The notes under the pieces are model-generated. The model searched no databases. It had not been told where the DNA came from and was given only the letters and a program-made list of their open reading frames with translations. Position numbers and translations under genes: made by a program. Shown here piece after piece: positions 1 to 34,770 of a stretch of 64,000 nucleotides of DNA (position 1 is the first letter of the stretch; every line of letters begins with the position of its first letter). The stretch is from Escherichia coli O157:H7 (lineage in GTDB: Bacteria > Pseudomonadota > Gammaproteobacteria > Enterobacterales > Enterobacteriaceae): NCBI RefSeq assembly GCF_013167455.1, contig NZ_CP038328.1; one strand, given 5' to 3'.

Positions 1-231
1 CACCAGCACGACAAGATGCCGCATACTGCGCCCCAGTCGGTCCAGTTTCCAGACCACCAGCGTGTCACCTGCCGATAATGTCCTGAGCAGCTTTTTCAGT
101 CCTGGTCTGTCGGACTTTGTACCGCTTATCTTGTCTTCAAAAATCAGCTCACATCCTGCACACTCCAGCGCATTACGCTGTAATTCCGTATTCTGGTTAT
201 TTGTTGATACGCGGACATAGCCAATAAGCAT
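1..231 (-). CDS. Serine DNA invertase (Gin/Pin/Cin/Hin family), N-terminal 77 codons; gene continues beyond window start
   Basis: Reverse complement from ATG at 231-229 translates MLIGYVRVSTNNQNTELQRNALECAGCELIFEDKISGTKSDRPGLKKLLRTLSAGDTLVVWKLDRLGRSMRHLVVLV, the catalytic N-terminal domain signature of small serine invertases; open to the window edge; next to the invertible fibre segment. Confidence 0.85.
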   Translation of the reverse strand, partial: MLIGYVRVSTNNQNTELQRNALECAGCELIFEDKISGTKSDRPGLKKLLRTLSAGDTLVVWKLDRLGRSMRHLVVLV

Positions 232-286
232 GAGCATTCCCCTGAGTAAAAACCGGGGATGATGCCAGTTAGCCATAATCTCTGCA

Positions 287-312
287 TTTTCTTAAACGTT
301 GGTTTGGGAGAA
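287..312. repeat. Left inversion crossover site (26 bp, gix/hix-like)
   Basis: ttttcttaaacgttggtttgggagaa; inner 14 bp ttggtttgggagaa is the exact reverse complement of ttctcccaaaccaa at 2178-2191; central dinucleotide tt versus aa. Confidence 0.7.
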
Positions 313-672
313 GCGGCAAAACGGGATGTGGGGACAGGGGAAAATCAGATACCGGACATGGCCTCTTTTGCCAGTGGTGATGGATGGATGAAATTACCCA
401 ACGGGAAAATCCTGCAATATGGTCGTGGTGCGGTTACGCCGACATTATCGACGCAAACAATGAGAATTACATTCAGCATCCCTTTCTCCAAAAAAGCGGA
501 CTGCGCCATGCTTACTCATTCTGGTGATGGCGGTGCGCCTTTAGGCGCTGGGCGAGGGTTCGTGATGACTGCAGAAGGCCCAACGTTAACCGGCTTTAAT
601 TCTGCTTACAGAACGTCATCAACCAGCGACACGGTATCGATGAATTACAGTTGGTGGGCTGTTGGTGAGTAA
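300..672 (+). CDS. Alternative tail-fibre C-terminal variable segment, promoterless and without its N-terminal part in the current orientation
   Basis: ORF 259..672; frame runs through the crossover site (..FLNVGLGEAAK..) so inversion would fuse it in frame to the constant fibre N-terminus; fibre-tip-like Gly/Ser/Thr-rich sequence. Confidence 0.55.
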
Positions 673-683
673 TTTTATTCAGG

Positions 684-1136
684 GTGATTTATATGAATGA
701 ATATGTTTATAGCGCAAGGCATAATGCTTTTTTCCCTGTGGATATGATTGATAAATATAAATCAGAGGGATGGGATTTATCAGACGCTAAGGAAGTAAAT
801 CAAAATATTATCAGTGAGTTTATGGCTGAACCGCCACAAGGAAAAATCCGTATTGCCGGAGATGATGGGCTGCCTGCGTGGGCAGATATTCCTCCACCCA
901 CGCATGAAGAACTTATTGAAATTACTGAATCAGAAAGACAGCTACTAATTAACCAGGCCAACGAATACATGAACAGTAAACAATGGCCCGGTAAAGCCGC
1001 TATTGGTCGTCTGAAAGGTGAGGAACTGGCGCAATATAATTTGTGGCTGGATTATCTGGATGCACTGGAGCTGGTTGATACCTCCAGTGCGCCAGATATT
1101 GAATGGCCTACGCCTCCGGCAGTTCAGGCCAGATGA
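684..1136 (+). CDS. Tail-fibre assembly protein (chaperone for the alternative fibre)
   Basis: 150 aa ORF; recognisable tail-fibre assembly protein family sequence; directly downstream of the alternative fibre segment. Confidence 0.7.
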   Translation: MIYMNEYVYSARHNAFFPVDMIDKYKSEGWDLSDAKEVNQNIISEFMAEPPQGKIRIAGDDGLPAWADIPPPTHEELIEITESERQLLINQANEYMNSKQWPGKAAIGRLKGEELAQYNLWLDYLDALELVDTSSAPDIEWPTPPAVQAR

Positions 1137-1710
1137 CATCCGGCGCGGTGCTGGTATCTGTTGCCGTCACCGCGTCAATGTAATCCAGCACAGCGTTAAG
1201 TCTGGTTGTTTCTGCCTGCGTCGGTTTACGTCCGGCCTGCAATTTCAGTTGAATCAGACTGATGGAAGCCATTGCTGCATCAATCAGTGACTGGCGCTGT
1301 GCTTCTGCCGCTTCTACTGCGGCACCGTGTTGTGCCTCAGTATCTGTCACCCATTTTTCACCATCCCATTTATCGAATGGCGTTAACGGGGCGATAGTGG
1401 TTGTATTTTCAGGATAATCACCCGGAGCTGTGATTTCTTTGGCGTCTCCCGTTTCGGTGTTATAGACGATTTCACCGCGATGGTCTGGCACATATTCCCA
1501 TGAGTTTAAATCCATCGAACGGCAGATAGCATAACCCGCCTTATGTATACCAGGTTCATCCAGACAGGAATATGCAGGGATACCGACACCAATGGCAAGA
1601 TATTCATTTGAAGTAGAAATATATTCCCGAGTTTTACCATCATAGTTATAGACGGTAATATTCCCCGCCTTCGTGGCAATAAGCTCGCTATTTAATACGG
1701 CGTTATCCAT
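1108..1710 (-). CDS. Tail-fibre assembly protein (chaperone for the expressed fibre)
   Basis: 200 aa ORF immediately downstream of the fibre gene on the minus strand; tail-fibre assembly family sequence. Confidence 0.7.
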   Translation of the reverse strand: MDNAVLNSELIATKAGNITVYNYDGKTREYISTSNEYLAIGVGIPAYSCLDEPGIHKAGYAICRSMDLNSWEYVPDHRGEIVYNTETGDAKEITAPGDYPENTTTIAPLTPFDKWDGEKWVTDTEAQHGAAVEAAEAQRQSLIDAAMASISLIQLKLQAGRKPTQAETTRLNAVLDYIDAVTATDTSTAPDVIWPELPEA

Positions 1711-32632: not shown

Positions 32633-32985
32633 ATGTTTTCGAAATGGAAGGGTTTCTTCGTGGGAGATGTGTACCGCGAGATCTGAAAGTGAATGAAACA
32701 GATGCTGAATACCTGGTGCGTAAATTCGATGCGCTTGAAGCTAAATGTGCAGCACAGGAAAACAAAGTAATACCAGTGTCAACTGAACTGCCACCAGCAA
32801 ATGAAAGTGTTTTGTTATTCGATGCTAACGGAGAAGGCTGGCTAATTGGCTGGCGTTCTCTCTGGTACACCTGGGGACAAAAAGAAACCGGAGAATGGCA
32901 GTGGACATTTCAGGTCGGGGACCTTGAAAACGTCAATATCACTCACTGGGCAGTAATGCCAAAAGCACCGGAGGCTGGAGCATAA
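32623..32985 (+). CDS. DUF551-like prophage protein
   Basis: 120 aa ending ..ITHWAVMPKAPEAGA, the characteristic C-terminus of this family. Confidence 0.65.
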   Translation: MRMNVFEMEGFLRGRCVPRDLKVNETDAEYLVRKFDALEAKCAAQENKVIPVSTELPPANESVLLFDANGEGWLIGWRSLWYTWGQKETGEWQWTFQVGDLENVNITHWAVMPKAPEAGA

Positions 32986-33290
32986 TGACCACTTTTACCG
33001 ACAAAGAACTGATTAAAGAAATTAAAGAGCGTATCAGCAGCCTTGACGTGCGAGACGATATTGAGCGCCGTGCTTATGAAATCGCACTCCTATCTCTGGA
33101 AGTAGAACCAGATGAACGCGAAGCTTATGAATTATTCATGGAAAAGCGTTTCGGTGACTTAGTAGATCGTCGGAGAGCAAAAAACGGCGATAACGAATAC
33201 ATGGCATGGGATATGACTCTCGGTTGGATCGTCTGGCAGCAACGAGCAGGTATCCATTTTTCAACAATGTCACAACAAGAGGTGAAATAA
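32985..33290 (+). CDS. Hypothetical prophage early protein
   Basis: 101 aa acidic ORF between DUF551 gene and xis. Confidence 0.5.
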   Translation: MTTFTDKELIKEIKERISSLDVRDDIERRAYEIALLSLEVEPDEREAYELFMEKRFGDLVDRRRAKNGDNEYMAWDMTLGWIVWQQRAGIHFSTMSQQEVK

Positions 33291-33640
33291 TGGAGCCATA
33301 CAGCCTCACACTCGATGAGGCCTGTCATTTTCTCAAGATATCCAGACCGACTGCCATTAACTGGATACGCACAGGGCGTCTTCAGGCAACACGCAAAGAT
33401 CCCACTAAGAATAAATCTCCTTACCTCACAACACGACAAGCCTGCATTGCGGCTCTTCAGTCTCCGCTGCATACTGTCCAGGTGAGCGCGGGTGATGGCA
33501 TAACAGAGGAAAGAAAATGTCACTCTTCCGCAGAGGTGAAATATGGTACGCCAGTTTCACATTGCCGAACGGTAAAAGATTTAAACAGTCTCTTGGAACA
33601 AAGGACAAAAGGCAGGCGACAGAACTCCATGACAAGCTAA
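33290..33640 (+). CDS. xis: Excisionase (P22 Xis-like)
   Basis: 116 aa from [37 protein letters not shown]..; HTH DNA-binding region; overlaps int start by about 124 nt. Confidence 0.8.
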
Positions 33641-34680
33641 AGGCTGAAGCATGGCGGGTCAGCAAACTTGGTGAAATACCTGATATAACGTTCGAGGAAG
33701 CGTGTGTCAGGTGGCTTGAAGAGAAAGCACATAAAAAATCGCTGGACGATGACAAAAGCCGGATCGGATTCTGGCTTCAACATTTCGCAGGAATGCAACT
33801 AAGAGACATTACTGAATCAAAAATTTATTCAGCAATGCAGAAAATGACGAACCGGCGTCATGAGGAAAACTGGAAACTCAGGGCAGAAGCATGCAGAAAA
33901 AAAGGGAAACCTGTTCCAGAATACACGCCAAAACCAGCGTCCGTTGCAACGAAGGCTACGCATCTTTCATTTATAAAGGCCCTACTAAGAGCCGCAGAGC
34001 GTGAATGGAAAATGCTGGATAAGGCACCAATTATTAAAGTGCCTCAACCAAAGAATAAACGGATCCGCTGGCTGGAGCCCCATGAAGCACAAAGGCTGAT
34101 TGATGAATGTCCGGAGCCATTAAAGTCTGTTGTTGAATTTGCACTGGCAACAGGCTTAAGACGCTCGAACATCATCAACCTTGAATGGCAACAAATAGAT
34201 ATGCAGCGCCGGGTGGCATGGATAAACCCGGAAGAGAGTAAATCAAACCGCGCAATTGGCGTTGCGCTGAATGATACTGCATGTCGCGTATTGAAAAAAC
34301 AAATCGGGAATCATCACCGTTGGGTATTTGTGTACAAGGAAAGCTGTACCAAACCAGACGGAACGAAAGCGCCAACAGTAAGGAAGATGCGGTATGACGC
34401 AAACACAGCCTGGAAAGCGGCGCTGAGACGGGCTGGTATTGATGATTTCAGATTTCACGACTTGAGACACACCTGGGCAAGTTGGCTGGTTCAAGCCGGA
34501 GTCCCGTTGTCAGTGTTACAGGAAATGGGAGGCTGGGAGTCTATCGAAATGGTTCGTCGATATGCTCACCTTGCACCTAATCACCTTACCGAACACGCAC
34601 GGCAAATAGACTCGATCCTGAACCCATCGGTCCCAAATTTGTCCCAGTCAAAAAATAAGGAAGGTACTAATGATGTGTAA
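33517..34680 (+). CDS. int: Tyrosine integrase (P22 Int-type, thrW-specific)
   Basis: 387 aa [22 protein letters not shown]...; C-terminal [16 protein letters not shown]...VRRYAHL catalytic motifs; stop 15 nt from the tRNA 3' end. Confidence 0.95.
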
Positions 34681-34694
34681 CTTATTGATTTTAA

Positions 34695-34770
34695 TGGTGC
34701 CGATAATAGGAGTCGAACCTACGACCTTCGCATTACGAATGCGCTGCTCTACCAACTGAGCTATATCGGC
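34695..34770 (-). tRNA. thrW: tRNA-Thr (anticodon CGU)
   Basis: Minus-strand gccgatatagctcagttggtagagcagcgcattcgtaatgcgaaggtcgtaggttcgactcctattatcggcacca; cloverleaf with GGTTCGA T-loop, anticodon loop uuCGUaa, encoded CCA. Confidence 0.95.

Follow-up and report, generated by a model that had tools for sequence, protein, structure and literature searches.

The SfV-like phages are lambdoid Myoviridae, that is, lambdoid phages that carry a myovirus tail (PMC3603311). The family integrates into the tRNA-Thr gene thrW, and a 46-bp att core is common to SfI, SfII, SfV, SfX and P22 (PMC3636060). Module exchange inside the family has been described for SfI, and thrW is already on record as a variable, compound prophage site in Escherichia coli O157:H7. 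Here we analysed a stretch of 64,000 nucleotides (nt) from an O157:H7 genome (NZ_CP038328.1), referred to below as the window, with position 1 as its first letter and negative positions lying to its left. Based on sequence comparison, we judge with a probability of about 0.9 that window 1-34740 is the larger part (~91% of the length) of a single 38.2-kb temperate SfV-like prophage in thrW.

An earlier reading, made from the sequence alone, had described a prophage at this locus combining P22-type int/xis, e14-like immunity, lambda-type lysis and a Mu-like tail, and had regarded it as a notable mosaic of different phage lineages. That observation is real and correctly located, and its interpretation, largely right, is partly supported: three of the four module labels hold. 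The HK97-type head with cos packaging, the Pin-invertible segment and the absence of gtr genes were omitted from that description and are reported below.

A precisely bounded insertion in thrW

We identified a single tRNA gene (ARAGORN; Rfam RF00005, 71.8 bits), located at the junction between phage and host genes. The features that define this junction are:

33206-34680, plus strand: xis (33206-33640) and int (33517-34680), overlapping
34694-34740, no strand: right att core of 47 bp, a perfect direct repeat of the left copy at -3526..-3480
34695-34770, minus strand: thrW, tRNA-Thr (CGT), intact; its 3' 46 nt are the att core

Phage genes for tail, head, terminase, lysis, Q, replication, immunity, xis and int run without a break over 1-34680. 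The last of them, an integrase open reading frame (ORF) of 387 amino acids (aa) and tyrosine type on the plus strand (33517-34680), stops 14 bp short of the tRNA 3' end. Directly after thrW come proA, from 34885, and proB (together 34885-37340). These positions agree with the earlier placement of a prophage at the thrW/proA hotspot, with its integrase-side junction at the tRNA 3' end, since the repeat at 34694-34740 lies inside the 3' half of the tRNA. The extent of 1-34770 given by the sequence-only reading was correct as to the prophage but slightly too long: bases 34741-34770 are the host part of thrW, and the edge lies at or within 34694-34740.

The 47-bp repeat is one base longer than the 46-nt 3' part of thrW that it covers, and it includes the published 46-bp core ATTCGTAATGCGAAGGTCGTAGGTTCGACTCCTATTATCGGCACCA (tRNA strand). 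A second copy had been expected to the left, beyond the window; in near-identical genomes it occurs once, perfect, 38,220 bp leftward and ~3.5 kb outside the window. Zero chance matches to the repeat are expected in shuffled sequence. Inward of the left copy, 125 bp correspond to the SfV attP arm (SfV 20638-20467, 96.5%). Int is identical to SfII Int at 385/387 positions (99.5%), to that of SfV at 381/387 and to that of P22 at 348/387 (89.9%), and Xis matches SfII at 141/144 and P22 at 101/116 positions (87%). Together with the duplicated core, these proteins make up a thrW integration module of the P22/SfV type, and the P22-type label for int/xis stands.

We also constructed in silico the junction that excision would leave, joining the integrase side of a neighbouring P4-like element to one att core, the rest of thrW and proA. 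Across its full 1247 nt, this junction has 100% identical matches in O157:H7 strains 2571, 493/89 and F6321 and in CEC13002, four genomes in all, and a 99.8% match in O55:H7 DEC5A. Given the perfect att repeat and these natural empty-site genomes, the prophage is a discrete, precisely bounded insertion.

Near-identical copies are available for comparison. Many complete O157:H7 genomes match window 1-8000 and 30000-38000 at 100%. Window 1-36036 differs from strain ECP19-2498 by 6 single-nucleotide polymorphisms and two indels, a 3-bp in-frame deletion that affects Rz and an intergenic insertion of 1 bp. Among 5,426 complete E. coli genomes, 95 contain 80% or more of window 8000-31000, and 79 have a best match of 99% or better.

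Family relationships and state of the phage

The gene content and order of the prophage are colinear with the functional phages SfV (NC_003444 / U82619) and SfII (NC_021857 / KC736978), at 96-99% nt identity over most of its length. The packaging, head and tail genes all lie in window 2177-19150, to which SfV 16974-1 aligns at 97.6% nt. SfV also matches the xis-int-att region at 98.3% nt; overall it aligns over 27,770 of the 38,267 bp of the prophage at 87-98% nt. SfII fills the immunity/replication stretch where SfV has no match, aligning at 96.9% nt to 24278-31214, where the nin-like, replication and immunity genes lie, and at 99.0% nt to 31616-34740. Taken together, the SfV and SfII matches range from 87 to 99% nt. 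Three stretches match neither phage: -3355..2177, 19560-20857 and 22126-23388.

Family membership is also indicated by the kinds of genes present. We find the lambdoid order of SfV and SfII (divergent cI/cro, CII-like gene, replication, nin-like region, Q and S-R-Rz), the Mu-related contractile-tail set (sheath L, tube, N, P and gp45-48), and an HK97-type head with P27-family TerS, TerL, HNH endonuclease and cos. The prophage is an ordinary, unnamed member of a well-described family at the family's canonical site. Its module mix is the standard SfV-like design with the usual within-family swaps and is no new combination. SfV, known since 2002 (Allison and colleagues), has these modules in identical order. 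What had been taken for a notable mosaic is the archetype of this family.

Compared with SfV, the prophage has the same cos end, thrW att core and gene order, and its Q, holin, Dam, RusA and DUF968 proteins are 95-99% identical at the aa level. The two differ in that SfV carries gtrA-gtrB-gtrV, which the prophage does not, and in the C-terminus of the tail fibre, which in the prophage lies in a Pin-invertible segment. The repressor and Cro are only ~20% and the replication initiator 30% identical to those of SfV, the Rz and bor genes of the prophage are of lambda type, and part of orf47-orf48 is swapped for a two-gene moron. With SfII, the prophage shares cI, cro, the replication initiator and a DUF4222 ORF at 100% aa, YmfL at 99%, the integrase as given above, and tail genes at 97-99% aa. 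SfII has a different head module (major capsid protein 25% aa, portal 28% aa) and lacks the pin segment; it carries gtrII/gtrA/gtrB, an acyltransferase and insertion sequence (IS) elements, whereas the prophage has no match to the SfII gtr region.

The reading frames of all genes for structure, packaging, lysis, regulation and recombination are intact, and PGAP annotation of a near-identical copy contains three pseudogenes, none of them structural. From this gene complement we predict that the element is probably an inducible phage. Several points weigh against the interpretation as an SfV-like temperate prophage in working order. The left att copy and the 3.5 kb at that end are known from other, near-identical genomes. 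No identical record was found in the phage collection, where the best match, vB_EcoM-689R6, covers 67-72%. Three lesions are present: a truncated methyltransferase gene, a frameshift in one early-left ORF, and the 3-bp in-frame deletion in Rz relative to sister strains such as ECP19-2498. Finally, inducibility and particle formation are both predictions from the gene content.

These points bear on the alternative that the element, much as e14 in K-12 or Sp1 in Sakai, has become a cryptic remnant that can no longer be induced and persists only on account of its cargo genes. In Sakai, thrW is occupied by a decayed relative of 10.6 kb whose int is a pseudogene, e14 is an SfV-like element that has undergone deletion, and the three lesions just listed, along with the lack of an identical sequenced virion in the phage collection, would be in keeping with such a fate. 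However, all genes for head, tail, packaging, lysis, Q, replication, repressor, Xis and Int retain their full length and encode proteins 86-100% identical to those of the plaque-forming SfV and SfII. The att core is perfect at both ends, cos has been conserved, and no essential role is known for the damaged genes. We therefore regard a cryptic remnant as a doubtful explanation and retain the inducible SfV-like prophage.

Two further elements share parts with the prophage. P22 has the related Int and Xis and integrates into thrW with the same core, but it is a short-tailed phage with headful packaging, and its structural genes have no detectable similarity to those of the prophage. The cryptic element e14 of K-12 shares Pin (95% aa), TfaE (88%), YmfQ (99%), YmfL (95%) and a TerL fragment (98%), and contains the same kind of invertible tail-fibre segment. 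It differs in being integrated in icd with an unrelated integrase (17% aa), in being heavily deleted, and in its YmfK, an SfV-type repressor (223/224 to SfV cI) unlike that of the prophage.

Relationships of this kind could be read as signs of a new hybrid, an unusual mosaic that arose by recombination among unrelated resident prophages of P22, e14, lambda and Mu type: the nearest classical protein relatives differ by module, SfV-like segments alternate with SfII-like ones, and three stretches resemble neither phage. Yet SfV and SfII already have the complete set of modules in this order, and the SfV-like group is recognised in the literature (PMC3603311). With SfV aligning to 27.8 of 38.3 kb and SfII covering immunity and replication, the exchanges fall within the family, and an origin from unrelated prophages is highly improbable.

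The meaning of the SfV-like assignment for O157:H7 is limited. In Sakai and EDL933 thrW holds the remnant Sp1 only, while an apparently complete SfV-like phage is present in about 80-95 of 5,426 complete E. coli genomes. Exact coordinates for att, cos and the invertible segment are now available for the locus and could serve, for example, as a lineage marker. Beyond such bookkeeping, we see little importance.

Gene modules and their predicted working

The structural, packaging and lysis genes of the prophage are the following:

2484-7523, minus strand: Mu-type baseplate genes (gp48/YmfQ-, gp47/J-, gp46-, gp45/V- and P/hub-like) and a DNA-circulation (N-like) gene
7542-12363, minus strand: contractile tail, with tape measure, tail assembly, tube, sheath, DUF2635 and tail terminator genes
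12360-16711, minus strand: neck/connector and HK97-type head (major capsid protein, prohead protease, portal; PGAP names)
16859-19559, minus strand: packaging module, with TerL (16859-18592), P27-family TerS (18589-19092) and HNH endonuclease (19209-19559)
20085-20378, plus strand: bor/iss serum-resistance lipoprotein gene, a lysogenic-conversion moron (PGAP 'Iss'; 92% aa to lambda Bor)
20410-21680, minus strand: lysis cassette, with holin S (21345-21680), endolysin R (20865-21341) and Rz with embedded Rz1 (20410-20868)

The baseplate proteins are 98-100% identical at the aa level to the products of SfV orf15-20 and 28-43% identical to Mu gp43-48. Similarly, the contractile-tail proteins are 98-100% identical to those of SfV orf9-14, with the sheath at 36% and the DUF2635 protein at 42% aa to Mu L and gp38. 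A tblastn comparison with Mu recovered eight tail and baseplate proteins at 28-43% aa. The Mu-like label given earlier to the tail, for which sheath and baseplate proteins match Mu L, N, P and gp45-48, is thus borne out.

The neck and head proteins are 92-100% identical to those of SfV orf3-8. The portal protein is 27% identical to HK97 gp3 and TerL is 25% identical to its HK97 counterpart; both are 98-99% identical to SfV. A cos motif, GGGGCGGGCA, is located at 19134-19143, and the genome ends of SfV meet at 19150/19151. For SfI, the cohesive end has been reported as ...TGCCCGCCCC (PMC3636060).

The lysis genes, as proposed from the sequence, are of lambda type. S, R, Rz/Rz1 and the adjacent bor gene are all present, with R 95% and Rz 99% identical to lambda at the aa level. 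The holin belongs to the lambda-S family (Pfam PF05106, E 3e-27) but has diverged from lambda S itself (~23% identity), and it is 99% identical to the SfV holin. The Pfam search gave no match for the endolysin, although it is 95% identical to lambda R.

The regulatory, replication and early genes follow to the right:

23520-27968, minus strand: late regulator Q (23520-24272) and nin-like region (Pfam)
27965-29075, minus strand: replication initiator (313 aa, HTH_36) and a small DUF4222 ORF (Pfam)
29251-30845, both strands: immunity region, with YmfL (29251-29802, minus), Cro-like protein (29795-30055, minus) and CI-type repressor (30153-30845, plus)
31123-33290, plus strand: early-left accessory genes, 94-100% aa to SfV orf28-33 and SfII_32-35

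The nin-like region encodes DUF968/HNH, KilA-N and RusA proteins, a protein with a LexA DNA-binding domain, Dam methylase and PerC/YfdN. These proteins and Q are 86-100% identical at the aa level to those of SfV and SfII, and Q is 34% identical to lambda Q and P22 gp23. The replication initiator is 100% identical to SfII_41, named 'primosomal protein'. Among the early-left genes are those for a 98-aa hypothetical protein, a frameshifted hypothetical protein (~31695-32040), the 5'-deoxynucleotidase YfdR, a 120-aa phage protein and YfdT.

In the immunity region, the repressor combines helix-turn-helix (HTH) and S24 peptidase domains, Cro has an HTH domain and YmfL is CII-like (CP76), as indicated by Pfam PF00717, PF01381 and PF06892. 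The repressor is identical to SfII cI at 230/230 positions, and Cro is 100% identical to that of SfII. By contrast, cI is only ~20% identical to e14 YmfK, SfV cI and P22 C2 (20.4% to YmfK in global alignment), and a tblastn search of e14 returned no match to Cro. The suggestion of e14-like immunity was therefore accurate for the genes downstream of cro, as YmfL (95%) and the DUF4222 ORF (100%) resemble e14, and mistaken for the repressor and Cro, where homologues of YmfK and YmfT are lacking and the SfII type is found. Because cI, cro, the initiator and the DUF4222 ORF are 100% and YmfL 99% identical to SfII, the prophage presumably has SfII-like immunity specificity.

By analogy with the SfV family and with lambda, P22 and Mu biology, we propose how recombination, repression, the regulatory cascade, packaging, tail-fibre switching and lysis may work in this phage. 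Int, of the P22/SfV type, would have joined attP to the 46-bp core within the 3' half of thrW in such a way that the tRNA gene was restored; the recipient strain would by then have had the P4-like Sp2 downstream of thrW. The CI-type repressor, of SfII specificity, is predicted to keep the prophage silent, and its HTH and S24 autopeptidase architecture suggests that it may be cleaved after SOS induction. Cro, the CII-like YmfL and Q would then drive a lambdoid cascade. TerS/TerL, with the HNH endonuclease, are expected to cut the DNA at cos, filling an HK97-type head that would be joined to a Mu-type contractile tail. Pin may flip the 1.9-kb segment to supply the other tail-fibre C-terminus and its chaperone, which could change the host range. 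The holin, the lambda-type R and Rz/Rz1 would lyse the cell. In the lysogen, Bor/Iss, the Q-S moron, a PD-T4-3 nuclease and an AraC-family regulator might be expressed as extras.

Variable regions and neighbouring elements

The left end of the window holds the invertase gene and the segment on which it is predicted to act:

1-231, minus strand: pin DNA invertase, 5' part; the full gene (184 aa, -323..231) crosses the left edge of the window
294-2196, no strand: Pin-invertible segment of 1.9 kb, with 20-nt inverted repeats at 294-313 and 2177-2196 (AAACGTTGGTTTGGGAGAAG / CTTCTCCCAAACCAAGGTTT)
259-1136, plus strand: alternative, currently unexpressed tail-fibre C-terminal cassette (259-672) and assembly gene (684-1136)
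1108-2480, minus strand: expressed tail fibre (1710-2480; Collar domain, PF07484) and assembly protein (1108-1710)

The invertase is named 'pinE site-specific DNA recombinase' by PGAP in a near-identical genome and is 95% identical to e14 Pin and 78% identical to Mu Gin at the aa level. The inverted repeats are 1863 nt apart, and SfV homology ends exactly at 2177, the edge of a repeat. The N-terminal 42% of the expressed fibre is 92-98% identical to SfV, SfII and e14, and its assembly protein is 88% identical to e14 TfaE. The alternative cassette, annotated by PGAP as 'gp53-like domain' and 'tail fiber assembly protein', is 94-97% identical to yfdL/yfdK of Sakai Sp1. The arrangement has the features of a tail-fibre switch operated by a Din-family invertase, as in Mu Gin/G and e14 Pin/P. 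When the segment was inverted in silico, the resulting form matched at least 12 O157:H7 genomes at 100% over 2700 nt, and the orientation of the window is likewise 100% identical in other O157:H7 genomes. Inversion within an outbreak has been reported for the thrW prophage (PMC8190617). The segment is active, or was so until recently.

Opposite orientations of the segment are also seen in otherwise near-identical prophages, such as those of ECP19-2498 and ECP19-598. For this reason, assemblies of the locus may differ by a biological 1.9-kb inversion that is no error. The FRIK2455 assembly differs from the window by single-base indels at 344, 733, 1876 and 23477 and by a 16-bp deletion at 5910-5925, owing to which PGAP calls its tail-fibre and baseplate genes 'frameshifted'. 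Some of these indels may be long-read assembly errors, not decay.

Beyond the tail-fibre genes, we identified two accessory regions. One is the 5.5-kb slot between the tail genes and the left att copy, which in the Shigella relatives holds the gtr genes; the other is a replaced segment between Q and the holin gene S:

~-2725..-1982, left of the window: AraC-family regulator, 100% identical to Sakai ECs_0287
~-1157..-384, left of the window: GIY-YIG gene (PADLOC model PD-T4-3 for anti-phage defence, full length, E 2.4e-140), 98% aa to Sakai Sp1 ECs_0285
21817-23308, minus strand: replaced Q-S segment, with a methyltransferase remnant and a low-GC two-gene moron

The slot contains the pin segment, the GIY-YIG/PD-T4-3 gene, the AraC regulator and an IS3 fragment. 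Judged by its position, the regulator is probably PatE (EDL933 z0321, OI-8), a prophage-encoded regulator of acid resistance and of LEE, the locus of enterocyte effacement. The cargo slot of the family thus holds more than genes for O-antigen modification. The serotype-converting members SfI, SfII, SfIV, SfV and SfX carry gtrABC or oac adjoining attP, and in a search for these genes no part of the element aligned to the gtr regions of SfV (17858-20390) or SfII. That the prophage alters the O antigen of its host like its Shigella relatives is scarcely credible: its closest relatives SfV, SfII, SfI and SfIV all carry gtrABC beside attP and share its Int and att site, but the slot is filled by the genes just named and no glucosyl- or acetyltransferase gene was annotated or detected in the element.

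In the second region, a remnant of an SfV orf48-type DNA methyltransferase gene lies at 21817-22131, and SfV/SfII homology is absent over 22126-23388. The moron comprises two minus-strand ORFs, of 77 aa (22389-22622) and 180 aa (22766-23308), with a GC content of 0.41, a site resembling a promoter at 23365-23336 and, at 22334-22306, a strong terminator. Both proteins fall into PHROG families of unknown function. Sequence searches of Pfam, PADLOC and PDB gave no match for the 180-aa protein, and the 77-aa protein had no match in Pfam or PADLOC. By eye, the C-terminus of the 180-aa protein resembles a GNAT acetyltransferase, a candidate assignment only. In Stx phages, stx sits between Q and the holin gene, the position taken by the moron here.

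The nearest counterpart of the left end of the prophage is Sakai Sp1. It occupies the same integration site, its int region is 99.5% identical at the nt level over 979 bp, and the left 4.9 kb of the prophage, with att, IS3 fragment, AraC regulator, GIY-YIG gene, pin and invertible cassettes, match it at 97% nt; both have the P4-like Sp2 in tandem. In contrast to the prophage, Sp1 is a 10.6-kb remnant that has an int pseudogene and lambda-type cI/cro/cII/O/P and has lost all head, tail, lysis and late genes. One could propose that the element is a fully inducible non-Stx myovirus present in a subset of cattle-associated O157:H7, in which the slot beside attP exchanged gtr for cargo of importance to this pathogen, the PD-T4-3 nuclease and the AraC regulator, and in which the moron between Q and S is a further addition; we consider this possible but unlikely. 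In that case Sakai Sp1 would be what decay has left of a phage of this kind, retained because of the cargo, and carriage of the intact phage might alter resistance to phages or the flow of genes among lineages.

To the left of the left att copy is a P4-like satellite that equals Sakai Sp2. It encodes its own integrase beside the shared att copy, Sid/Psu/Delta-like proteins and a primase. Genes named 'ABC-three component system' by PGAP and an AAA ATPase gene are also present. A 25-mer search with 3 mismatches allowed found two att copies only; blastn-short detected a third, degenerate copy (25 of 27 positions, one gap), which marks where the satellite ends on its far side and gives it a length of 12.9 kb. 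The satellite probably came first and the phage later entered an intact thrW, as a phage-free thrW-Sp2 junction is found in O55:H7 and in several O157:H7 genomes. P4-type Sid, Psu and Delta act on P2-type helpers. We considered the SfV-like phage as a helper of the satellite and dropped the idea, as nothing in the data suggests it.

To the right of the prophage, 34771-64000 is ordinary core chromosome, with proA, proB, phoE, crl, frsA, gpt, pepD and dinB, and extends to an Rhs/VgrG locus. We identified naRNA4, a nucleoid-associated, REP-derived RNA, at 49249-49326 on the minus strand (Rfam, 64.8 bits), near a rayT pseudogene; it bears no relation to the prophage. Over 57300-64000 the GC content falls within 0.37-0.39, and this region encodes an ISEc26 transposase and the Rhs core protein/VgrG of type VI secretion. 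The window and ECP19-2498 diverge near 60575-60868, in the Rhs tip region.

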